Assembly (NCBI GenBank): GCA_964626625.1
Contig: CAZVFV010000001.1
Coordinates: 1 to 43,220 of the forward strand
Direction of reading: 5' to 3'
Source: an uncultured Candidatus Saccharibacteria bacterium
GTDB lineage: Bacteria; Patescibacteriota; Minisyncoccia; Phycocordibacterales; CAYZPE01
DNA: 43,220 nucleotides
The stretch's first letter is position 1. Every line of letters begins with the position of its first letter. The notes under the pieces are model-generated. The model saw nothing but the letters and a program-made list of their open reading frames with translations. It was not told the DNA's origin and did no database searches. Shown here one piece after another: positions 986-21,360 of this stretch. The position numbers and the translations under genes were made by a program.

Positions 986-1237
986 TTAAATAAGAATAAT
1001 AAATATAATCGCAAGAACAAATAAAGAAATAGAAATTGTAAAATAAAATACTTCTGCCTTAAGAATTAGACGACTACCCATACCATATGTTCTCCAGTGA
1101 TATGCCAAAACTGCACTTACAATAGCGTATATAAAAAATACAAAGCCGAGCACATACCACAAAGCTTTTGGATTCTGAACAAAAGCAACGAGATTATTTG
1201 GATTGAAAAAGTTACTTATAGATTGAAGAAAATCCAT
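986..1237 (-). CDS. Small integral membrane protein, function unknown
   Basis: 83 aa with two clear hydrophobic helices. It is co-oriented with the 380..979 gene and only 6 nt upstream of it. Confidence 0.5.
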   Translation of the reverse strand: MDFLQSISNFFNPNNLVAFVQNPKALWYVLGFVFFIYAIVSAVLAYHWRTYGMGSRLILKAEVFYFTISISLFVLAIIFIILI

Positions 1238-1262
1238 ATATTAAGTATATCAATAAAAATCA

Positions 1263-1300
1263 AAATCCCCACAGGCTCGCATGCGAGCCTGTGGGGATTT
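1263..1300 (-). terminator. Intrinsic terminator of the 64-aa ORF
   Basis: Perfect 18-bp palindrome aaatccccacaggctcgc/gcgagcctgtggggattt, followed on the minus strand by ttttgattttt. It begins 3 nt after the TGA stop at 1303-1305. Confidence 0.75.
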
Positions 1301-1302
1301 CT

Positions 1303-1497
1303 TCACCCTGCATTTCCTACCGACAGATTGATCTGATTGAGCTTACTCAATACCAACCTTTTTTGCACAAGAGGAGTGTTTCGATTCCTCAATACCTCCT
1401 CAATGAGACATTTGGTCAAAACACACCCCATAAGATCTTCTGCTGCTCTTTCTATCAATGAATCAGAAACTGCCTCCTGAATAGTAATCTGTCCCAT
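1303..1497 (-). CDS. Hypothetical 64-aa protein in a self-contained transcription unit
   Basis: The ORF has its own TTGACT-17-TACTAT promoter, an AAAGGA SD-like element 7 nt before the ATG, and a perfect terminator. No family was recognised. Confidence 0.55.
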   Translation of the reverse strand: MGQITIQEAVSDSLIERAAEDLMGCVLTKCLIEEVLRNRNTPLVQKRLVLSKLNQINLSVGNAG

Positions 1498-1548
1498 AAA
1501 CCCATCCTTTCACAAAAGGTGCAATCAAGAATTGAAAACCTATTTTCA

Positions 1549-1577
1549 ATAGTAGGACATTTTTAAAGTAAAGTCAA
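1549..1577 (-). promoter_or_regulatory. Sigma-70-type promoter for the 64-aa ORF
   Basis: On the minus strand, TTGACT (1577-1572), a 17-nt spacer, then TACTAT (1554-1549). The 5' UTR contains the hairpin attgaaaa-tagg-ttttcaat. Confidence 0.5.
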
Positions 1578-1632
1578 TTTACTAATCCATACCCTACATA
1601 TGAAGTTTGCCTAAGTCTAATATTAGCAAATC

Positions 1633-2388
1633 CTACTTAAAGACAGTCTGACTATCCTTAATGTTAAAATCTCCGATAGAAACCCTCTTTATGCGCAAAG
1701 CTAAAGCGTGTGTTTGTAGCTTCTTTGCTATGCGTTGTACCAAAGACCTTATATATGTACCACTTGAACAAGAGACCTTGAGAGAAGAAATGCTGTAGTT
1801 AATGTTCTCAATCAAAACACTCTCCCACTGCTTGATAATTTCCACCTGTCTAAAATCACCCTTCACTTTTTTAAGTGAATTAACAATATCTTCTTTTAAA
1901 AGACCTCCTTGGATATTTACATCTTGTGTATGCTCTAGTTTAAAAATCTCTATTTCCTTTGTGGGAATATTAATTGTATTTAACACACCTTCTCGTGCCC
2001 ACATAAAAAGAGGCTTACCTAAAACAGTTTTTGATGAGTATGGTGGATATTCCTGAGTGTACTTACCAACAAAAGAAGATACTGCACCTGAAACACCTTT
2101 CGGTAACTCTACAGAAGTGATATATGTAATCAAACCTAGTGCGTCATAGGTATCTGTTTCAAAACCCCATAGTACTTCAAATTCATATACCTTAGGAAGT
2201 TTAGTAAACTCATCTTTTTTGTATACATCTTCTCCAGTAAGAATAATGAGTAGGCCTTCTGCCATAGGATCAAGCCTTCCTGCATAGGTAACAGAAACAT
2301 CTTTGTACGAAGAATTGCTTTGTATAAAACGCTCCACACATTCGAGTGGCGTTTCCCCTCTTTGTTTGTATAAAGATATAACACTCAT
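1633..2388 (-). CDS. truB: tRNA pseudouridine synthase, TruB family
   Basis: 251 aa. It carries the catalytic-Asp motif AGRLDPMAEGLL and has TruB-like N-terminal architecture. Confidence 0.85.
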   Translation of the reverse strand: MSVISLYKQRGETPLECVERFIQSNSSYKDVSVTYAGRLDPMAEGLLIILTGEDVYKKDEFTKLPKVYEFEVLWGFETDTYDALGLITYITSVELPKGVSGAVSSFVGKYTQEYPPYSSKTVLGKPLFMWAREGVLNTINIPTKEIEIFKLEHTQDVNIQGGLLKEDIVNSLKKVKGDFRQVEIIKQWESVLIENINYSISSLKVSCSSGTYIRSLVQRIAKKLQTHALALRIKRVSIGDFNIKDSQTVFK

Positions 2389-2429
2389 TCCTTGTTCAAA
2401 ACCCTCTGTTTCGATACAATGTCATAATC

Positions 2430-3734
2430 ATGACCAAAAAACAAATGGTTTCTAAAAAACTCTCCACTGAAAGCTATAAAGGTGTTCGTGACTTCTTTCC
2501 AGAAGAAATGCGACTCCAAAAACACATCTTTTCTGTTATGAGAGAATCTGTAGAGCTCTATGGATACGAAGAGTACAATGCTTCGATTTTAGAGCCAGCA
2601 GAACTCTATGAAGCAAAAAGTGGAGAAGAAATCGTAAAAGAACAAACTTATACCTTTACTGATCGAGGTGGTAGAAAAGTAACTCTACGACCTGAAATGA
2701 CACCGACCGTCGCCCGCATGATTGCATCACGAAGCAAAAGTATGCCACTTCCTGCTCGCTGGTATTCAATACCAAACCTTTTTAGATACGAACAACCACA
2801 AAAAGGAAGACTTCGTGAACACTTTCAATTAAATGTTGATTTGTTTGGAGTAAAAGACATATCAGGTGATATTGAAATTATTTCACTTGCTCATTTTCTT
2901 ATGCAAGCATATGGCGCGAAGCAAAGTGACTATGTTATAAAAATCAATAACAGAAAAATTACCGAAAGTCTTTATAAGCACTATGGAATTGCTGAAGAAG
3001 AAGCCTACAAACTTTCAAAACTTATAGATAAGAAAAACAAAATAAGTGCAGATACTTTTGATACAGGACTTGAACTACTTGTACCCAAAAAGGCGTCTGA
3101 ATTTAAAGCTGTTCTTTCTTCGAATAAAGTTGTTATCGAAACTTTAGGAGAAGACAACGAAGGTGTAATTGAACTCCTCCAAACAATAGAAGGCTTAAAG
3201 AAACTTGGTATTGAAAATGTTATCTTCGACCAAACACTTATGCGTGGCTTTGACTACTATACAGGAATTGTTTTTGAAATTTTTGACACTCACCCAGACA
3301 ATATGAGATCACTTTTTGGTGGAGGACGTTATGATGATTTAATAGATCTTTTTGGTGGAAAAGATATGCCTGCAGTCGGTTTTGGCACAGGAGATGTAAC
3401 CATAAAAGATTTTCTAGAAATACACAATTTACTTCCGAACCTAGAAAAGAAAGCTGATGTCTATATAGTACGACCAGACAAAACTTCTATTATTGAATCT
3501 ATGAAAATTGCAGATGGCTTAAGACTTGCCGGACTTGAAGTGCTCGTAGATCTTGGAACTAAAAAAGTTGCCGACCAAATTAAACAAGCAGAAAAGTCTG
3601 GCGCATCGTTTGTACTTTTTATTGGAGAAGAAGAACTCAAAACTAATATCTTTACCCTTAAACACCTCGCCTCAAAAGAAGAAATTAAAAAAAGCATTAC
3701 TGACATACAAACACTTCTCTTAGAGAAAAAATAA
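2430..3734 (+). CDS. hisS: Histidine--tRNA ligase
   Basis: 434 aa with GVRDFFPEE, class II aaRS motifs (RPEMTPTVAR, YRYEQPQKGRLREHFQ, GGGRYD) and a C-terminal anticodon-binding domain. Confidence 0.93.
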   Translation: MTKKQMVSKKLSTESYKGVRDFFPEEMRLQKHIFSVMRESVELYGYEEYNASILEPAELYEAKSGEEIVKEQTYTFTDRGGRKVTLRPEMTPTVARMIASRSKSMPLPARWYSIPNLFRYEQPQKGRLREHFQLNVDLFGVKDISGDIEIISLAHFLMQAYGAKQSDYVIKINNRKITESLYKHYGIAEEEAYKLSKLIDKKNKISADTFDTGLELLVPKKASEFKAVLSSNKVVIETLGEDNEGVIELLQTIEGLKKLGIENVIFDQTLMRGFDYYTGIVFEIFDTHPDNMRSLFGGGRYDDLIDLFGGKDMPAVGFGTGDVTIKDFLEIHNLLPNLEKKADVYIVRPDKTSIIESMKIADGLRLAGLEVLVDLGTKKVADQIKQAEKSGASFVLFIGEEELKTNIFTLKHLASKEEIKKSITDIQTLLLEKK

Positions 3735-3752
3735 AAAACACCACCCCACTAC

Positions 3753-4328
3753 ATGAAAAAAATTGTTTTTGACATTGAAACTAAAAATACGTTCCAAGAA
3801 GTTGGTTCGACAGAATCAACAGCCCTCGATATTTCGCTCGTTGGGATTTATGAATCAGAAAAAGATTTATACTCTTCATTTCTTGAAGATGAATTAAATA
3901 AATTGTGGCCAATCTTAGAATCTGCAGACATGATTATTGGTTACAATTCAGAACACTTCGACTTGCCTCTCCTCAACAAGTATTATCACGGAGACCTTTC
4001 TCATATTAAACACGTAGATATTTTGAAAGAAATTAAAAATTCTATCGGTAGACGTATGCGACTCGATCAAGTTGCAGAAGGTACACTTGGACTTAAAAAG
4101 TCAGGACACGGTCTTCAAGCAATCACGTGGTGGAGACAAGGTGAAATAGAAAAAATTCGTAAATACTGTCTTGATGATGTAAGACTTACCAAAGATCTTT
4201 ATGAATATGCACTCAAAAATAAAGCTCTTAAATTCAAAGAAGGACCTTCTATTATCGATATCAAACTAGACACAGCAAACTGGGAGAAAGCTGAAGAAAG
4301 TGGACTAACATTTTCACTACCTTTTTAA
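3753..4328 (+). CDS. DEDD-type 3'-5' exonuclease (RNase H-like fold)
   Basis: 191 aa with an Exo I motif FDIET, Exo II YNSEHFDLPLL and Exo III YCLDDVRLT. Confidence 0.7.
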   Translation: MKKIVFDIETKNTFQEVGSTESTALDISLVGIYESEKDLYSSFLEDELNKLWPILESADMIIGYNSEHFDLPLLNKYYHGDLSHIKHVDILKEIKNSIGRRMRLDQVAEGTLGLKKSGHGLQAITWWRQGEIEKIRKYCLDDVRLTKDLYEYALKNKALKFKEGPSIIDIKLDTANWEKAEESGLTFSLPF

Positions 4329-4331
4329 TTT

Positions 4332-5132
4332 TTATAAAAATATCAGTATCAATACCGCGAGAATAACTCGGTACCAAATAAATAATTTTAAAGTTCTATT
4401 TTTTAAGAAAATCACAAGAAAATGTATAGCAAGCAATCCTACTGCAAAAGCAGTTATACCTCCCGCGAGCACTGGGAGAAAAGATACTCCACTTGCTGTT
4501 CCTAAACTAAACAGACCCTTAAGAGCAGCTCCAAAAATAATCGGTACCGAAAGAAGAAAACTAAAACGAACTGCTTTATCACGAGAAAGCCCTACTAACA
4601 TACCTCCAGAAATTGTTGCGCCAGATCGAGACATACCTGGAATTAAAGCAAGTGACTGAAATAAGCCAATATAAAGAGATTTTTTATAAGAAGGAAAGGT
4701 GTCACTTATTTCCTGCTTTTTATACATGTACTCGGCAATATACATTAAAACAGAACCGAGAATAAGAGCGAAAGCAATCATTGTTGAAGACCTAAAGGTA
4801 TTTTCAAAGAAACCAGAAAATAAAAAGCCTAGTATCACAGCAGGCATAGTTGCAAGAGTTATCATTGCAACAAACTCCTGCTCTGCCCTAACAGCCTTCC
4901 GTCTCACAACTCTATAAGTTGATGTGACGAGAGCTTTTACATCAGACCAAAAATATACAAGTACTGCACACAGTGTTCCCACATGAAGAAAAATATCAAA
5001 AAGAAGCGTACCTGTTATGTTTATTCCAAGAAAATCTCTGACGATGACCAAATGCCCCGAAGAAGAAACTGGAATAAATTCAGAAATACCCTGAACAAAT
5101 CCTAATACAATACTAGAAAATAATTCGTTCAT
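4332..5132 (-). CDS. uppP: Undecaprenyl-diphosphate phosphatase
   Basis: 266 aa polytopic membrane protein with the BacA/UppP signatures EFIPVSSSGHL and PGMSRSGATI. Confidence 0.92.
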   Translation of the reverse strand: MNELFSSIVLGFVQGISEFIPVSSSGHLVIVRDFLGINITGTLLFDIFLHVGTLCAVLVYFWSDVKALVTSTYRVVRRKAVRAEQEFVAMITLATMPAVILGFLFSGFFENTFRSSTMIAFALILGSVLMYIAEYMYKKQEISDTFPSYKKSLYIGLFQSLALIPGMSRSGATISGGMLVGLSRDKAVRFSFLLSVPIIFGAALKGLFSLGTASGVSFLPVLAGGITAFAVGLLAIHFLVIFLKNRTLKLFIWYRVILAVLILIFL

Positions 5133-5138
5133 ATAATT

Positions 5139-5897
5139 TTATTCAAAAAACACCAAAGAAAACATTAGGAAAACTCCAAGTATAATAGCTACAAACTGAA
5201 TAAGTGAGTGTTTAAAACTTGGAAATTTATGTAACTCAGGAACAAGGTCACTTCCAGCAATATAAATAAATCCACCTGCTGTAAATGCAAGCATTATATT
5301 TGCAAAATTATCAACAGATCCAGAAAGAAGAAAAGCAATTCCTACACCAACAAAAGCAGAAAGTGCTGAAAGAAAATTATAAAAAAGTGCCTTACCTCGA
5401 CTAAGACCTGAATGCACCAACACACCAAAATTACCTACTTCTTGAGGAATTTCATGAAAAATAACAGCGAGAGTGGTAGCTACCCCAACTGGAATACTTA
5501 TCATATATGAAGCAGTAATAAGCATGCCATCAATCAGGTTATGAATACCGTCTCCAAATATAACCATAGACCGAAGTGTTTGATGTTGAACTTCTGGATG
5601 ATGATGACATTCGTCCGACTCACCATGAGAATGACGCCAATGTAAAAATTTTTCAAAAACAAAAAACATGAGTATTCCTGCGAGGATCAAAAACGAAGCA
5701 ACCTGAGGGTCAAGAACAGTAAAAACTTCTGGAATAATATGAATAAAAACATCTCCAAATAAAACACCCACAGAAAGACTTACGAGAACAAATACAATTC
5801 GAGATAGAAAACGAGTAGAAAAAACAAGTGTCAAAACACCAACAAGTGAGATAAGACTCACTATAAGTACACTTATAAGAGAATACAAAATAGCCAT
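5139..5897 (-). CDS. ZIP-family divalent metal (zinc) transporter
   Basis: 252 aa polytopic membrane protein with a His-rich loop (HSHGESDECHHH) and the ZIP signature HEIPQEVGNFGVL. Confidence 0.85.
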   Translation of the reverse strand: MAILYSLISVLIVSLISLVGVLTLVFSTRFLSRIVFVLVSLSVGVLFGDVFIHIIPEVFTVLDPQVASFLILAGILMFFVFEKFLHWRHSHGESDECHHHPEVQHQTLRSMVIFGDGIHNLIDGMLITASYMISIPVGVATTLAVIFHEIPQEVGNFGVLVHSGLSRGKALFYNFLSALSAFVGVGIAFLLSGSVDNFANIMLAFTAGGFIYIAGSDLVPELHKFPSFKHSLIQFVAIILGVFLMFSLVFFE

Positions 5898-6818: not shown

Positions 6819-6846
6819 AGCTGTTAGGTTTTAGCTTTTAGATAGA
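6819..6846 (+). repeat. Phased heptamer array: agctgtt aggtttt agctttt agataga
   Basis: 7-nt periodic AGCT-led units lie directly after the dsbA-like stop and abut the terminator stem. The same family occurs at 22210, 28304 and 35467. Confidence 0.5.
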
Positions 6847-6878
6847 GCTCCGGTTCGCTTTGCGAACCGGAGCTCTAT
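6842..6878. terminator. 17-bp hairpin between the convergent dsbA-like and helicase genes
   Basis: atagagctccggttcgc-ttt-gcgaaccggagctctat forms a perfect stem. There is no clear U-tract on either strand. Confidence 0.65.
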
Positions 6879-6893
6879 TGGTAAAACTTAAAT

Positions 6894-6998
6894 TTACCCT
6901 CCTACTTGGAAGTAATACTTCCGAGTAGTAAAGTTTTACCTCGTCCTATTCTCGTTGCACGCAGACGAGGTATTAGGCGAGGTAACGGGGAAAACTTT
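6894..6998. ncRNA. Candidate structured RNA motif, copy 1 (strand unresolved)
   Basis: The leader ttaccctcct and a variable hairpin precede a 69-nt core (6930-6998). The core is about 85% identical to 21031-21098 and has the nested stems aaagtttt/aaaacttt and acctcgtc/gacgaggt. Confidence 0.45.
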
Positions 6999-7033
6999 AT
7001 AGAATGTCCAACATTTGGTGTTGGACATTCTAT
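6999..7033 (-). terminator. 15-bp hairpin 3' of the helicase gene
   Basis: atagaatgtccaaca-tttgg-tgttggacattctat forms a perfect stem, 27 nt downstream of the helicase stop at 7060. Confidence 0.5.
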
Positions 7034-7059: not shown

Positions 7060-10047
7060 TTATCTCTTCAACATCTTTGCCAGAATACAATACTCACACT
7101 TTTTATCGTCACATGTTTTATCCCAAAATGAGAGCTCGAGTATTTCATTACCTACCATTTCGATTGTTTCAATTAAATCATCAGTATCATCTTTTGTTAC
7201 CGTAAACTTTTCCTTTACATACTTTCCTCTTTCATTAGGTTCAACAAAATCAATTTCCCCTGAAACCATATCGTACATACCACCTTTAAATCTATCGAGT
7301 AGAATTTTATAAAAAACAATTTGTCTAAAAATGTTTCCTTCTGAATCTTTTGTATCACCTGTAATTTGATTTCGTGTTTTAGGTTTGCCAGTTTTATAAT
7401 CAATAACATTAACTTCTCTCTCACTTAAAAACTCTAATTTATCAAGCTTACCCGTCAAAATAATTTCTGAAGTTAAAGCGATATTTCTTACGGCAAATTC
7501 ATTGAGAGTTTGAGTTATCCATCGTGAACTATATTCATCAAACCAACCAGAAAGTGCTTTTTCACCTCTTTCTTTATAGACAAGAAAATCACTTTCTTTA
7601 AAGGGCTGTGTTTGTAAAGTAGAAACAAAGGCTTGTACTGTATTTTCCTTTGAAAAATCTTCTTCAATACGAAGTTTATTAAAAAGAGTATTGAGGGCTT
7701 CATGAATAGCAGTACCGTACATTAAATGAGCTTCATCAGCCTGAGGAAGCCTAATGAGGTTTCTATAGAAGTATTTCCATGGACATGAAAGATAGTTATT
7801 AAGAGCTGATACAGACATCCCTTGGGCTGTAAAAAGGCTTTTAATATAAGCTTTGTCATGGAGACCTCCTCCAGATTGCCCTTCTGCTTTAACGTATATA
7901 TGAGACCTTTTTTCTTCAAACTCATTTTCTAAAGAAGTGGTATCAACTAAAGTAGTAAGTTTAGAATCAATCTCTTGAATGAATTGACTCGGAAGTTGTT
8001 CTCTACCGTCTTCACCGTGACGTGAAAAAGAAAGTGTTACATGTTTTTTAGCCCGAGTTAAAGCAACATACAAAAGACGTCTCTCATCGTCGAGAGAACT
8101 TCCTTGTGTATTTTTTTGAAGTAGAGAATATACTTCTGGCAATAATTTCAAAGACTCTATCTTTCTTTTATTTCCCCACTTACCGTCATATACATGAACA
8201 ATAAAAACGTATTCAAATTCAAGCCCTTTTGACTTATGCGTAGTCATAAGACGAACAAACCCTTCTCTTCCACCTCTCTTTTTTTTCTTTGGAGAAAGAC
8301 TGTGGTTTTCAAGAGTATTCAAATGCTCTAAAAAATCTTTTAAATTTCCCTTTGGTGACATGCGAACAAAATCTCTTATTTCCTCAAAAAATAAATCAAT
8401 TGCATCAAGTGTTTCTTGTGCACCATCCTCACCAAGCACACTATTTAAAAGTCCTGACTCCCTCAATATTTCTTCAAAAAAATCAACAAGTCCTTTGTTA
8501 TGAGATTCTTTTACAAAGTACGAAAGAATTGAAAAAGCATTCAGAATAGTAGTCTTATTTTCAAGTTCCACATCGTCGAGTAATTTCTTTTGAGAAATAA
8601 CATCATAGAGTGAATACTTTCTTTTTTGACCTGCTGACCTGATAAGCTTGAATAAATCCAGAGGAACAACGTCCCATAAAGGTAGGTGAAAATAGTCGGC
8701 AAGTTTTCTGTCATCTCCAAAATTATTAGCTGCCTCTGCAATTGAGAGCAGTTTTCTCACAGCAGAATGAGAAAAGATACTTTCCTCTGACTCAATAGTA
8801 TGCGGTATGTTTACTTTTTTAAAATAAGAAGAAAGTTCTTCTGCATCTTTGTTATCTCGATATAAAACTGCAATTTCATGAGGATGAACACCTTCATCTA
8901 AGAGCTTTTTAATGTCTTGTCCAATTCCATAATATTCATGTTCTTTTTTTGTAAATGCATATACAGAAATAGGTTTTATGCTTGCCTTACCTTGCGATTT
9001 TAAAACAACATCAGATGGTATCATGCTGTGAGCACTATCCAGAATAGATTGAGTTGAACGATAGTTCTCTGTCAGCTTCACAAGTTTTGTTTCTGGATAC
9101 AACTCTTTGAAATAGAGAAAATTTTCAAGACTCGCTCCTTGAAAACGAAAAATTGCTTGCTTTTCATCACCAACCACAAAAAGATTCGGTCGTGGTGCAA
9201 AGTGACTTGCTAATCGCTCGAGTATTTTATTTTGAGCATTATTAGTATCTTGATGTTCATCAACTAAAATATATTGATAATTTTCTTGTAAACGAAGGAG
9301 GAGGTCTTCATTTTTTGTGAGAACTTTCAGAACCTCGATAATCATATCGCTATAGTCATAGAGCTTCTGCTCTCTCAAAGAAACTTCATATACATCGTAA
9401 ACCTTCAAAAGCTCTTCGTTTTTTGAAATTTGTTTTTCAAGATCTTTATAAACCCCCTTCATTTTTCCTTTATGAACACCCTTCTCATGATATACGTCAG
9501 GAGTTACCTCAAAATCTTTACGTGCTTTTGTGATAATGTCTTTGAAAGCTTTCGTATCAACTCCTTCTCTTTTTAAGTTATTAATTCCTGATAAAATTGG
9601 TTTTACAAAATAAGAAGGATCACCGTGAGGTTTTAAAAATTCAAAACTTTCTTTCTCAATAATAGCCTCTATAATCTTTATTTGTTCAATATCAGTAATA
9701 CTCCTTGAACCAATAATATGAGGAAATTCTTCTGGGTTCTGCTGGATTATCTCATTTGCAAAACCATGAAATGTGTTTATGTGTACCCGATATGCAGAGG
9801 TTTTTATAATATTCAAAAGCCTCTTTCTCATACTTGAAACACCAGATTCAGTAAATGTGAGAGCTAAAATATTTTCTGGAGCAGTGTCTGTTTTAAGAAG
9901 AATGTTTGCAATACGGAGTGTTAAAATCTGGGTCTTGCCAGTACCTGGTCCTGCCACAACCATAACTGGACCATCGATAGAATCAACAGCCTCTTTTTGG
10001 TCTTTATTTAAAGCTTTATATAGTTTCTTAAATTCTAAACTTTCCAT
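7060..10047 (-). CDS. UvrD/PcrA-type SF1 helicase fused to a C-terminal PD-(D/E)XK (RecB/Cas4-like) nuclease with a four-Cys cluster
   Basis: 995 aa. The helicase part has Walker A GPGTGKTQ, DEHQDT and TTHKSKGLEF. The C-terminus has YLSCPWKYF, VIDYKTGK, RQIVFYK (QxxxY) and CDDKKCEYC. Confidence 0.85.
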   Translation of the reverse strand: MESLEFKKLYKALNKDQKEAVDSIDGPVMVVAGPGTGKTQILTLRIANILLKTDTAPENILALTFTESGVSSMRKRLLNIIKTSAYRVHINTFHGFANEIIQQNPEEFPHIIGSRSITDIEQIKIIEAIIEKESFEFLKPHGDPSYFVKPILSGINNLKREGVDTKAFKDIITKARKDFEVTPDVYHEKGVHKGKMKGVYKDLEKQISKNEELLKVYDVYEVSLREQKLYDYSDMIIEVLKVLTKNEDLLLRLQENYQYILVDEHQDTNNAQNKILERLASHFAPRPNLFVVGDEKQAIFRFQGASLENFLYFKELYPETKLVKLTENYRSTQSILDSAHSMIPSDVVLKSQGKASIKPISVYAFTKKEHEYYGIGQDIKKLLDEGVHPHEIAVLYRDNKDAEELSSYFKKVNIPHTIESEESIFSHSAVRKLLSIAEAANNFGDDRKLADYFHLPLWDVVPLDLFKLIRSAGQKRKYSLYDVISQKKLLDDVELENKTTILNAFSILSYFVKESHNKGLVDFFEEILRESGLLNSVLGEDGAQETLDAIDLFFEEIRDFVRMSPKGNLKDFLEHLNTLENHSLSPKKKKRGGREGFVRLMTTHKSKGLEFEYVFIVHVYDGKWGNKRKIESLKLLPEVYSLLQKNTQGSSLDDERRLLYVALTRAKKHVTLSFSRHGEDGREQLPSQFIQEIDSKLTTLVDTTSLENEFEEKRSHIYVKAEGQSGGGLHDKAYIKSLFTAQGMSVSALNNYLSCPWKYFYRNLIRLPQADEAHLMYGTAIHEALNTLFNKLRIEEDFSKENTVQAFVSTLQTQPFKESDFLVYKERGEKALSGWFDEYSSRWITQTLNEFAVRNIALTSEIILTGKLDKLEFLSEREVNVIDYKTGKPKTRNQITGDTKDSEGNIFRQIVFYKILLDRFKGGMYDMVSGEIDFVEPNERGKYVKEKFTVTKDDTDDLIETIEMVGNEILELSFWDKTCDDKKCEYCILAKMLKR

Positions 10048-17703: not shown

Positions 17704-20700
17704 TTATTTAGCTTCTTCTACTTCTTCTTCGGTCGACCCTTCTTTTCGAGTTAAGTTAACATCGAGAGCAAGTCCTTTAAGATTGTTTAAGAGAACACTA
17801 AATGATGCTGGTGAATTAATCTCACTTATATCCTGACCTTTCACAATTGAATCAAAAGCTGCTGAACGTCCGATAATATCATCAGACTTTATCGTAAGTA
17901 CTTCACGTAAGTTATACGCAGCACCATGTCCAAGAAGAGCCCACACTTCCATTTCTCCGAATCGCTGACCTCCACCTTGAGCCTTTCCTCCAAGTGGTTG
18001 CTGTGTAATAAGAGAGTACGGACCGATTGATCGCATATGAAGCTTGTCCTCAACCATATGGTGAAGTTTAAGAATATACATGTATCCAATAGCAATCTTT
18101 TGATCAAAAGCTTCTCCTGTTCGTCCATCAAAAAGCACAGTTTTACCGTCTTCTGCAAAACCAGCTTTCTTTAATTCTTCCTTAATTTCACTGTCAGTTG
18201 CCCCAGCAAATGGTGGAACAATAGCTTGATAATTTAATGTATGAGCAGCAAGACCTAAGTGGAGTTCAAGAATTTGACCAAGGTTCATACGAGAAGGAAC
18301 ACCAAGTGGTGTAAGAATCACGTCAATCGGAGTTCCGTCTGGCATATATGGCATATCTTCTTGAGGTAGCACCTTAGAGATAACACCTTTATTTCCGTGT
18401 CGTCCCGCAAGCTTATCTCCAACCGAAAGAGCTCGAAGTTGAGCAATTTCAATATGAATACGCTTTATAATACCGCTTTCAAGCTTGTCTCCTTTCTCAC
18501 GAGAAAACACCTGAACCTTAACAATACGTCCTCGCTTTCCGTTCTCCATTCTCTTTGAAGTATCTTTTACATCACGAGCTTTTTCACCAAACAAAGACCG
18601 AAGAAGTCTCTCTTCTGGAGTAAGTTGTGTTTCACCTTTTGGAGTAATTTTTCCAACAAGAATATCTCCTGGTCGAACCTCTGCTCCTACACGAATAATT
18701 CCATCTTCATCAAGATTTTTAAGTTTAACTTCACCAACGTTTGGAATATCACATGTTGTTACTTCGGGACCAAGTTTTGTATCACGAACATTAACTACAA
18801 ATTCCTCGATGTGAATTGAAGTAAATTTACTATTTTTAACGAGTCGCTCTGAAACGATAATCGCATCTTCGTAGTTTGCTCCTGACCATGACATAAATGC
18901 AACAAGAACGTTTTGACCAAGTGCCATTTCTCCCTTATCACTTGATGATGTGTCAGCAAGCAAACTTCCCTTTTTAACTTTCTCTCCAACGCTTACTACT
19001 GGACGTTGATGAAATGCAGTAAAACCGTTTGTTCGTGAGAACGTTACCAAACTATATGTATGATATTTTCCTTTAGCATTTTTAACAACAATTTTCTTTC
19101 CATCAACATGAGTTACAGTTCCTTCTTCAAGACAAACCACAATGCGTCCAGTATCAACTACAGCGTGCTCAACACCAGTTGCAACGAGTGGAGCTTCTGG
19201 AATAATGCACGGTGTTGCTTGTTTTTGCATGTTTGAACCCATGAGCGCTCGGTTAGCATCGTCATGGTTAAGAAATGGAATCATAGAAGTTGCTACAGAA
19301 AATGCCTGGTTTGAAGCAACATCAATATAATTAATTTCTTCTCGAGCAACGATAGTTGGCTCACCGTTTACACGCACCTCAACTCTTTCTTCAAGAATTT
19401 TACCTTCCTTATCATAGACAGTCGCTGCATGAGCAATTTTAAAGTTTTCTTCTTCAAGAGCATTAAGATAGTCAATCTCACCTGAAAGCTTACCGTTTTT
19501 CACCTTTGCATACGGAGTCTCGATCATTCCAAATGTATTTACTCGTGCGTATACAGAAAGATGCAAAATAAGTCCAATGTTTGCACCTTCAGGAGTATGA
19601 ATAGGACAAAGTCTTCCATAGTGAGATGGATGTACGTCACGCACTTCAAAACCAGCTCGGTTTCGATTGAGTCCTCCAGGACCAAGAGCAGACACTGTTC
19701 GCAAATGTTCAAGTTCTGCCAAAGCATTTTCTTGAGCCATAAACTGTGAAAGCTGGTTTGTTGCGAAAAATTCTTTAATTCGAGCTTGAAGTGGTTTTGG
19801 ACTTATAAGCTGAACAGGGAGAGCAACACTTGTCTCAATAGTAGACATTCTGTTTTGAATGTTTCTCTTGATTTGAGACATACCAACACGAATTTTTTGT
19901 TGAAGAAGTTCCCCAACGAAACGAACTCGTCGCGATCCAAGGTGATCAATATCATCTGGAATAGAATCTGGAGTGTTATTAAGGTGTGCTATATGCTTCA
20001 AAATAGTAACAAGATCGTCAAGAGAAAGTGTTTTTCGTTCACTTTCTTTCTTATCAAGACTCTTACTAAATCGCTTATTAAAACGAAAACGACCAACCTT
20101 TGAAAGGTCATATCGCTCTTTATCAAATAAAACTGTAACGAAATCACGAGCATTTTGAGCTGTTGCTAAGTCACCATCTCGAAGTTTCTTGTGAATATCA
20201 ATATATGATTCATCAGCTGTCTTAGCTGTATCTTTAGCAAGAGTTTTTTCTATAGCTACTCGAGTATGTTCATCACCATCAAAAAGAGCTAGAATTTGCT
20301 CTGGTGTTACCGCTCCGAAAACTCGAAGAAGTGAAGTTACTGCAAATTTTCGCTTTTTATCAATTCGAACATAGAATACCCCTTCAACATCTGTTTCTAT
20401 TTCAATCCAAACTCCACGAGCTGGGATAATTTTTGCACCAAAATGTTTTCTATTTCGTACTTCTTGTGCAGTAAAGAAAGCACCAAATGAACGAGCGAGC
20501 TGTGGAACAATAACGCGCTCAATACCACCAATAATGAATGTTCCGTGGTTTGTCATGAGTGGAAAATCAGCGATGAATATTTCCTGCTCTTTCTCTGAAT
20601 TAAGTGTGTGGTTTTGTAAACGTACTCTTACTTTAAGGGGAGCTTCGTAAGACATCTTGTTTTCCTTGGCATAGTATTCATCATACTTAGGGAGACCAAG

Positions 20701-20922
20701 TTCAAAACCGGTAAAATCAAGAGTGAATTTTTTACCTGAATAATCTTTTATTAAAGAAAACTCTTGAAACACTTCTTTGAGACCTTCTTTCATGATCCAT
20801 TCATATGAATCAGTCTGCATCTCAACCAAGTTAGGCATATCAACAAGAGACTCTTTGAAGCGACCGAAAAACTTCTTTTCTAATTTACCTGAAACAACTC
20901 TTCTTTTTGTTGGTACTCCCAT
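17704..20922 (-). CDS. rpoB: DNA-directed RNA polymerase subunit beta
   Basis: 1072 aa with GDKLAGRHGNKGVISK, conserved rifampicin-region blocks and RFGEMEVWAL. Confidence 0.97.
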   Translation of the reverse strand: MGVPTKRRVVSGKLEKKFFGRFKESLVDMPNLVEMQTDSYEWIMKEGLKEVFQEFSLIKDYSGKKFTLDFTGFELGLPKYDEYYAKENKMSYEAPLKVRVRLQNHTLNSEKEQEIFIADFPLMTNHGTFIIGGIERVIVPQLARSFGAFFTAQEVRNRKHFGAKIIPARGVWIEIETDVEGVFYVRIDKKRKFAVTSLLRVFGAVTPEQILALFDGDEHTRVAIEKTLAKDTAKTADESYIDIHKKLRDGDLATAQNARDFVTVLFDKERYDLSKVGRFRFNKRFSKSLDKKESERKTLSLDDLVTILKHIAHLNNTPDSIPDDIDHLGSRRVRFVGELLQQKIRVGMSQIKRNIQNRMSTIETSVALPVQLISPKPLQARIKEFFATNQLSQFMAQENALAELEHLRTVSALGPGGLNRNRAGFEVRDVHPSHYGRLCPIHTPEGANIGLILHLSVYARVNTFGMIETPYAKVKNGKLSGEIDYLNALEEENFKIAHAATVYDKEGKILEERVEVRVNGEPTIVAREEINYIDVASNQAFSVATSMIPFLNHDDANRALMGSNMQKQATPCIIPEAPLVATGVEHAVVDTGRIVVCLEEGTVTHVDGKKIVVKNAKGKYHTYSLVTFSRTNGFTAFHQRPVVSVGEKVKKGSLLADTSSSDKGEMALGQNVLVAFMSWSGANYEDAIIVSERLVKNSKFTSIHIEEFVVNVRDTKLGPEVTTCDIPNVGEVKLKNLDEDGIIRVGAEVRPGDILVGKITPKGETQLTPEERLLRSLFGEKARDVKDTSKRMENGKRGRIVKVQVFSREKGDKLESGIIKRIHIEIAQLRALSVGDKLAGRHGNKGVISKVLPQEDMPYMPDGTPIDVILTPLGVPSRMNLGQILELHLGLAAHTLNYQAIVPPFAGATDSEIKEELKKAGFAEDGKTVLFDGRTGEAFDQKIAIGYMYILKLHHMVEDKLHMRSIGPYSLITQQPLGGKAQGGGQRFGEMEVWALLGHGAAYNLREVLTIKSDDIIGRSAAFDSIVKGQDISEINSPASFSVLLNNLKGLALDVNLTRKEGSTEEEVEEAK

Positions 20923-20967
20923 AATATAAAAATAGTTAGCAAGATTTATAATAAAGTATTAGAAACG

Positions 20968-21098
20968 TTACCCTCCTCGGTTCAGAAATGAAAAAGTTTT
21001 TCCATTTCCTCACCCTACGTCGGCAGTAATAAAGTTTTACCTCGTCCTATCCTCACTACAATAGACGAGGTGTCAGGCGAAACAACAGGGAAAACTTT
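20968..21098. ncRNA. Candidate structured RNA motif, copy 2, inside the rpoB upstream region
   Basis: ttaccctcct and a variable hairpin precede a 68-nt core (21031-21098) with the same nested stems as copy 1. If transcribed with rpoB it lies in the 5' leader. Confidence 0.45.
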
Positions 21099-21332
21099 GT
21101 TGGATATGTATCGGCTCCGCCGACTCTTTTTGTATGTGCTGATCGAACTCCGAAGCAGAGCTTCGGAGTATACTCCGCAATCGCAACAAACAAAAAATGT
21201 GCCTTATCTCCATAAGACATACAACAAAATTTTTTTCTTTATTTATACCGAGTTAGCAAGTGAAACGTAGCTACAAACACTAAAAATACCCTTTCTGGGC
21301 TACCTTAACTCAATCTTGCAATAGCGAAGATA

Positions 21333-21360
21333 AGTATACCTATAACTAAAAAGCTGTCAA
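21333..21360 (-). promoter_or_regulatory. Candidate rpoB operon promoter
   Basis: On the minus strand, TTGACA (21360-21355), a 16-nt spacer, then TATACT (21338-21333). This implies a roughly 400-nt leader before the rpoB ATG at 20922. Confidence 0.5.

Follow-up and report, generated by a model that had tools for sequence, protein, structure and literature searches.

Two copies of a structured, non-coding element in the window (the whole 43,220-nt stretch of DNA analysed here) probably belong to a lineage-restricted, non-autonomous interspersed repeat of BOX/MITE-like kind, which is passively transcribed as structured RNA and affects its neighbours only incidentally. This reading follows from diverged copies in unrelated positions, orthologous sites that are empty in relatives, a variable set of modules, and copies that carry neither a promoter nor an open reading frame (ORF). 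The element is modular and hairpin-rich, and 70–245 nt in size. An earlier, sequence-only reading had described it as a structured RNA and had connected one copy with rpoB. The first part of that description stands, in that the element is real, non-coding, structured and conserved; the regulatory tie to rpoB does not.

Copies, modules and distribution

The cores of the two window copies lie at 6930–6998 (copy A) and 21031–21098 (copy B), exactly where they were first reported. Their identity had been given as about 85%; the homology is confirmed, but global identity is 56/69, or 81%. The exact 20-mer AAAGTTTTACCTCGTCCTAT occurs at 6930 and 21031, with no other site in the window at three or fewer mismatches, and its chance expectation in the window is 0.02. 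Both stems that had been claimed, the outer AAAGTTTT/AAAACTTT and the inner ACCTCGTC/GACGAGGT, are present in each copy. Each core is also accompanied, as described, by TTACCCTCCT, which has exact matches at 6894 and 20968 only, window-wide, and by a variable hairpin after it (6902–6928 vs 20985–21008) that differs between the copies in both length and sequence. Copy B does lie upstream of rpoB, a minus-strand ORF at 17704–20922 with its ATG at 20922, and is flanked on the other side by the trmD stop (21390). Copy A sits between the stops of a DsbA-like gene (6815, plus strand) and a UvrD/PD-(D/E)XK helicase gene (7060, minus strand), gene assignments on these two sides drawing on Pfam domains for the helicase.

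A metagenome scan for the outer stem returned 13 loci, among which only L047 and L052 were real. These are one new contig, present in two samples of the window's JGI series. Window positions 21027–21194 align with L047 6845–7014, giving ~170 nt of homology, and a second copy lies at L047 760–929. There are thus four distinct copies (winA and winB, which are copies A and B, plus L047a and L047b), 105–245 nt long and with a mutual identity of 73–87%. Their contexts are unrelated, as had been proposed from the first two: one is in the rpoB leader, one in the UvrD/DsbA spacer, and the L047 pair lies on either side of a 23S-tRNA-5S operon. L047 is probably from the same population as the window, on the basis of the shared samples and of GC content (37.2% in the non-rRNA part of L047, 36.7% in the window and 41% in the relatives).

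The two L047 copies are direct-orientation repeats that bracket the 23S-tRNA-tRNA-5S operon (1077–5381). The 23S gene of this operon carries a group I intron at 1917–2123 and has no linked 16S gene. The ~1.4 kb between the upstream copy and the 5' end of the 23S gene contains short, doubtful ORFs only.

Three modules make up the complete unit: module I, of ~85 nt; module II, which is the 70-nt core; and module III, in which a variable hairpin is combined with AGGAGGGTAA on the minus strand. The nested-stem motif that had been seen twice is only module II of this larger modular repeat. Copy B has modules I, II and III, copy A has modules II and III, and L047a and L047b each have modules I and II.

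In copy B, module II (21027–21102, minus strand) is a long imperfect hairpin with outer, middle and apical stems, and scores 95 bits (E=2.6e-20) with the covariance model (CM) R1. Module I (21103–21186, minus strand) comprises a long P1/P2 hairpin, CTCCGAAGC-TCT-GCTTCGGAG, and a short P3, GTCGGC-GGA-GCCGAT. It is 73–79% identical to L047 838–921 and L047 6923–7007, and falls beyond the coordinates first given for copy B, which were too short, homology continuing ~85 nt further to about 21186. Module III (20962–21026, minus strand) has its variable hairpin at 20985–21008, then AGGAGGGTAA at 20968–20977, and is flanked by 13-nt direct repeats, TAATAAAGT(A/T)TTA, at 20949–20961 and 21027–21039. 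In copy A, the core (6926–7002, minus strand; CM R1 99 bits, E=2.5e-21) lacks module I and directly abuts the uvrD-side hairpin. Its module III (6890–6925, minus strand) comprises the hairpin at 6902–6928, which overlaps the module border, followed by AGGAGGGTAA at 6894–6903. Beside copy A, GGTAAAACTT at 6880–6889 forms a third copy of the outer-stem arm.

The repeat is confined to one Parcubacteria/Paceibacteria lineage, the names being taken from RpoB matches. Neither CM R1 (module II) nor sensitive blastn (modules I and III) found a single copy in ~140 kb of relatives' DNA, and plasmid and phage collections gave no blastn match to the element. An exact-pattern scan for the stems across 185,579 species genomes returned only 37 matches, occurring singly and spread over unrelated phyla; judged on the pattern match alone, they look like chance. 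Scans of viral contigs gave three 17-mer matches that the CM did not support, and none with a longer pattern. Two other candidates, L053 and L054, reached 38–39 bits with the CM and were rejected, since they match within a conserved ~100-aa ORF and owe their score to the pattern by which they were picked.

The earlier statement that the element fits no known family also holds. Rfam 15 gave no match at gathering thresholds across the whole window; relaxing the cut-off to E up to 10 for the elements with their flanks brought up only spurious miRNA and sRNA matches, far under threshold and mostly on neighbouring terminator hairpins. ARAGORN found no tRNA or tmRNA, and no consistent ORF is shared across the copies. 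No sigma-70-like promoter was found inside or just upstream of any of the four copies, on either strand. Lacking a promoter or ORF of its own, the element is most likely transcribed only passively.

Structure and the constrained strand

Module II is best drawn as a single long hairpin. Its middle stem pairs (G/A)YYUCGCCU(A/G) with (A/U)AGG-ACGAGGU, and its apical stem pairs CCUCGU with GYGAGG and includes one U-A to C-G double change. The sequence-only reading had recognised a 'conserved 3' bulge', which is no bulge: on the minus strand, this segment pairs with the 3' arm of the inner stem to give one longer hairpin. The inner stem as first drawn uses this 3' arm in a competing pairing. GACGAGGT has two mutually exclusive partners, ACCTCGTC or (A/G)YYTCGCC. 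The triplet that varies within the supposed bulge (ACC or GUU, minus strand) finds its partner in the GGU of GACGAGGU.

The element had been described on the plus strand. Constraint acts instead on the minus strand, which is also that of rpoB, as indicated by substitutions that keep G·U pairs. Pairing-preserving substitutions are mainly G·U on this strand. In P3, GUCGGC-GGA-GCCGAU of copy B becomes GUUGGU-GGA-GUUGAU in L047a, through four C-to-U changes, each of which leaves a G·U pair on the minus strand; read on the plus strand they are A·C mismatches, and the P3 of L047a is destroyed there. For the same helices, 148/156 cells are paired on the minus strand vs 128/156 on the plus strand, a difference partly biased by the structure having been predicted on the minus strand. 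Folding energies did not separate the strands.

The choice of strand bears on the possibility that the copies are paralogous trans-acting small RNAs, in which the C-rich TTACCCTCCT of the plus strand would serve as a seed against purine-rich targets. There are several paralogues with strong folds (z = -5.8 for copy A, plus strand) and a C-rich single-stranded 5' segment, and a bidirectional terminator follows L047b on the plus strand. However, this explanation appears highly improbable given that the G·U evidence favours the minus strand, that plus-strand P3 is destroyed in L047a, and that TTACCCTCCT is missing from the L047 copies. A promoter is present on neither strand at any copy, so that no promoter and terminator delimit a discrete transcript; copy A directly abuts the preceding hairpin, and copy B lies inside the rpoB leader. 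Moreover, the genome barely uses Shine–Dalgarno (SD) sequences, and an anti-SD seed would therefore have few targets.

This scarcity of SD sequences is apparent throughout the window: among 30 gene starts, almost none has an upstream SD (for example, 20923–20962 before rpoB). The description of TTACCCTCCT as 'anti-SD' therefore carries little weight. For the same reason, the two perfect AGGAGGGTAA 10-mers of module III are striking, and an AGGAGGG lies ~45 nt from the rpoB ATG. No expression platform could be recognised, as copy A lies between convergent genes and has no gene downstream, and window starts almost never have an SD. Several window starts lie right after TATA(A/C)T-like boxes and are possibly leaderless.

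Two coding or leader functions considered at individual copies were rejected. At L047a, an ATG at ideal SD spacing after GGACAAGGTAAAAC opens a 256-codon ORF, which would fit an SD-sequestering leader; orthologues, however, start 13–15 codons downstream, behind their own TATACT box, and SD is hardly used. A type I toxin was considered for a 40-aa hydrophobic ORF after L047b, and no equivalent ORF follows the other copies.

The sequence-only reading had held that a structured RNA should have further homologues with compensatory stem changes. More copies do exist, and most substitutions in their stems keep pairing. Stems are much better conserved than loops, and 95–97% of stem cells still pair despite the 13–27% divergence of the copies. 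Double changes occur in about five pairs (3–4 sequences), the remainder being mostly wobble-compatible single changes, and shuffle controls are uninformative at this depth. The preservation of stems in old copies suggests selection on structure beyond simple decay.

Such selection would be expected if the element were a cis-acting RNA module kept by its host behind terminators and in leaders, having spread by duplication and then been retained. It might stabilise transcript ends, provide a processing site, serve as a back-up terminator or insulator, or be a translational leader in which GACGAGG/AGGAGGG is masked or unmasked by alternative pairing. The conservation of stems far above that of loops, the structure-preserving nature of most stem changes on one strand, and a degree of stem preservation better than neutral decay would suggest at this divergence all favour a module of this kind, as do the mutually exclusive pairings of GACGAGGT. 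The AGGAGGGTAA 10-mer, conspicuous in a genome otherwise without SD, points in the same direction, but SD masking has little meaning where SD is unused, and double compensatory changes are confined to the few pairs given above.

Terminator feet, empty sites and the rpoB leader

All four copies (4/4) begin 0–12 nt after a strong hairpin, and the sequences of these hairpins are all different. They comprise the rpoB-leader terminator, the post-helicase hairpin, a post-5S terminator, and a terminator after the gene for a 232-aa membrane protein. At the rpoB site, the terminator (21185–21220, minus strand) consists of a hairpin at 21197–21220 and a T-run; copy B begins right at its 3' side, read on the minus strand. 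Copy A starts at the foot of a perfect 15-bp hairpin (6999–7033, minus strand) that follows the helicase stop, and is bounded on its other side by a perfect 17-bp hairpin (6842–6878, no strand assigned) after the DsbA-like gene. The orientation of the copies matches the upstream gene in 4/4 cases.

The rpoB site can be compared with that of five relatives, whose RpoB proteins are about 77–88% identical to that of the window (L057 88%, L059 81%, L075–L077 78–79%). Upstream of rpoB, all five have a TTGAC-N-17-TATA(A/C)T promoter, a leader with GCAAGATTGAGT, a terminator hairpin with a T-run, and an ATG within 5–40 nt. The gene trmD is kept upstream of rpoB in four of them, and the L059 contig ends ~300 nt upstream of rpoB. 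In the window, the rpoB promoter and leader lie outside the repeat (21221–21360, minus strand), with TTGACA-16-TATACT at 21360–21333 and a ~130-nt leader containing GCAAGATTGAGT. The window leader therefore has the layout of the relatives plus modules I–III (~245 nt) between the T-run and the ATG, which makes the element an extra sequence within a conserved rpoB leader.

The recurrence of homologues upstream of rpoB had been put forward as a check. The element is absent there in L057, L059, L075, L076 and L077 (5/5), where the CM finds none, and the terminator hairpin is present and followed by the rpoB ATG. An RNA dedicated to rpoB regulation is thus contradicted by five relatives that keep the promoter, leader and terminator without the element. 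Similarly, the UvrD-DsbA spacers of L060 and L062, whose helicases are 75% and 66% identical to that of the window, are of the same length, but are unrelated in sequence and contain no element. Since none of the relatives examined has the element at these loci, neither rpoB nor the other genes need it. Loss in the relatives, instead of gain in this lineage, would need several independent events.

These empty sites weigh against the host-kept cis-acting module, even though the orientation of the copies always follows local transcription and copy B occupies the rpoB 5' leader. Neighbouring genes have no common function, copy A has nothing downstream to regulate between its two convergent genes, and at L047a the gene is served by a TATACT -10 box of its own and, as its orthologues indicate, starts downstream of the element. 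A retained regulatory module therefore appears unlikely, despite the quality of its stems. An internal promoter that would let rpoB bypass the attenuator was also considered, and none was found.

Under the interspersed-repeat reading, copies would have been added to intergenic DNA within this lineage, by transposition or recombination. The insertion point would lie directly downstream of an existing intrinsic-terminator hairpin, with the copy co-oriented with the upstream gene. Copy B would then be transcribed together with the rest of the rpoB 5' leader, and read-through past the terminator would account for transcription of copy A and of the two L047 copies. The minus-strand transcript is predicted to fold into several stable hairpins, which may be maintained for the sake of a single-stranded form, either RNA or single-stranded DNA during mobilisation. 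Effects on neighbours, such as changed transcript stability, extra termination or insulation, or a longer rpoB leader, would be incidental. Mobility of the repeat, the importance of its single-stranded form and the incidental nature of these effects are what we infer from the arrangement of the copies.

The conserved rpoB leader beside the repeat is the more promising regulatory candidate. It spans 21195–21360 (minus strand) in the window, 9790–9975 in L057 and 66–232 in L059, and takes up the last ~190 nt ahead of rpoB in L075–L077. It contains a near-invariant block, (T/C)(T/G)GCAAGATTGAGT(T/C)A.GG, and an A/T-rich spacer, and a downstream CTTGC can pair with GCAAG. The window leader (21195–21360) has no Rfam match, and a consensus fold of six rpoB leaders predicted no pairs, the MAFFT alignment being too poor. 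The leader resembles an attenuator-type regulator for the rpoBC genes of Paceibacteria.

A 10-mer, AGTTAGCAAG (CTTGCTAACT on the minus strand), occurs at 20934–20943 and 21251–21260, 317 nt apart. The two copies bracket the terminator and the repeat: one is ~10 nt upstream of the rpoB ATG, and the other is in the rpoB leader, where relatives have a single CTTGC...TAA. The pair could be a duplication linked to insertion.

In the UvrD-DsbA spacer of L060, the relative with 75% helicase identity, positions 7547–7778 contain a consensus promoter (TTGACA-17-TATACT), then an AAGGAGG and a 7-codon ORF (MSRFCGE) within a short transcript, and a strong terminator. This segment may be an independent small RNA or peptide gene.

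Relationship to known repeats and mobile elements

The element is small, non-coding and dispersed in four copies, as are MITEs (transposable elements of the miniature inverted-repeat type), and its orthologous sites are found both occupied and empty (five relatives lack it at the rpoB site, two at the UvrD-DsbA site). It has no terminal inverted repeats: there is no complementarity between its ends (TTGCGATTGCGGAG... against ...GGTAAAAC or ...AGGAGGGTAA), and inverted repeats are all internal. As for possible target-site duplications, TTTATT is repeated exactly at the L047b ends, at 5/6 positions at winB and not at all at L047a, in a T-rich context that makes chance matches likely. No transposase, reverse transcriptase or parent element was found in the 43-kb window or in the L047 and L052 contigs, and the gene content of the window is housekeeping only. 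Since the classical hallmarks of MITEs are not demonstrable, the repeat is filed as BOX/MITE-like in kind, outside any named family. The sequence-only reading had allowed that a match to an insertion sequence or MITE terminus would make the motif mobile-DNA debris. There is no such sequence match, and a reclassification close to this one rests instead on the distribution of the element.

Alternatively, a larger mobile element that targets terminators or hairpins, with an autonomous copy elsewhere in the genome, could have left the copies as debris or as its subterminal ends. Candidates are a degenerate group IIC intron and elements of the IS200/IS605 or REP/RAYT type, which act on hairpins in single-stranded DNA. 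IS200/IS605 and REP/RAYT elements lack terminal inverted repeats and target-site duplications, and have subterminal, strand-specific hairpins. The element, with no terminal inverted repeats and no consistent target-site duplication, resembles them, as it does in its subterminal hairpins and in the integrity of these hairpins on one strand. As with REP/BIME/REPIN sequences and IS200/IS605 palindromes, its copies are extragenic imperfect palindromes near gene 3' ends, and copy A, with three GG(T/G)AAAACTT arms, resembles a REP mosaic with shared arms. Unlike REPs (20–40 nt), however, its units are longer and more complex, no RAYT/TnpA was seen, and there is no conserved GTAG-type head.

Group IIC introns are reported to insert after terminators in sense orientation (Robart, Seo and Zimmerly 2007). 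The position of the repeat recalls this habit, as 4/4 copies lie in sense orientation just 3' of a terminator hairpin and T-run. In contrast, at 70–245 nt the element is far below the size of a group II ribozyme (at least ~600 nt), has no reverse transcriptase or domain V/VI, and gives no Rfam Intron_gpII or D1D4 match at E up to 10. Group II intron domains aside, IS605/HEARO-type RNAs were equally without an Rfam match at this threshold. The two end hairpins are unrelated to one another, and the contigs examined contain no Y1 transposase or reverse transcriptase gene. An origin as debris of a larger element is therefore decidedly unlikely.

The interspersed-repeat reading has its closest likeness in the BOX element of pneumococcus, which is modular, with lone modules, forms RNA stem-loops, is limited to the species and its nearest relative, and is co-transcribed with its neighbours (PMC3049150). 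Like BOX (boxA-boxB-boxC), the element described here is short, intergenic, non-coding and lineage-restricted, with variable module combinations and extended predicted stem-loops. The likeness is one of kind only, as the host belongs to a different phylum (Patescibacteria) and nothing points to sequence homology. BOX, for its part, has terminal inverted repeats and target-site duplications, of which nothing consistent was found here, and is not specifically tied to the terminator foot. SPRITE, another pneumococcal interspersed repeat, is enriched near gene 3' ends and associated with termination (PMC3049150). It shares with our repeat a position close to gene 3' ends, but is itself terminator-like, whereas our repeat comes after a terminator that was already there and is not itself repeated, and no U-tract follows it.

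Bacterial MITEs have been reviewed and include Correia/NEMIS, ERIC, RUP and RPE (PMC2229807). In common with these, the repeat is <300 bp, multi-copy and non-autonomous, forms a hairpin when transcribed, shows presence or absence at orthologous sites, and can occupy 5' or 3' untranslated regions. Classical MITEs, however, have terminal inverted repeats, target-site duplications and a cognate insertion sequence, none of which is demonstrable here, where palindromes are internal to the modules.

Little has been recorded about interspersed repeats in the very small genomes of Patescibacteria/CPR, and a literature search on MITEs in this group found nothing relevant. A repeat at terminator feet, and even in the rpoB leader, indicates that streamlined genomes tolerate such elements. 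It could be used as a strain or lineage marker in the source metagenomes, and terminator targeting, if confirmed genome-wide, would be a mechanism worth knowing. It also serves as a caution that repeated hairpin motifs should not be read as riboswitch-like regulators.

A more speculative pair of readings is that the repeat is an ultra-small mobile or replicative CPR element that homes to terminator feet, or a domesticated 'post-terminator' RNA module that controls read-through; we regard this as a long shot. The first would imply a ~170-nt structured RNA or single-stranded DNA with no encoded protein and targeting like that of group IIC introns. The second would imply that the cell places such a module after strong terminators, among them the rpoB attenuator and those on either side of an rRNA operon. 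If this were true, the strand-specific keeping of four hairpins at 13–27% divergence would reflect function, not recent spread.

Two minor observations concern the ends of the window. At its left end (1–379), contigs L067–L071, from five samples, all stop inside a partial ORF no more than a few hundred bases from that end, which suggests an assembly-breaking repeat or a strain-variable region. At the right contig edge, 42884–43144 encodes a free-standing 86-aa GIY-YIG nuclease-domain ORF directly upstream of pheT, whose start it overlaps by 4 nt.
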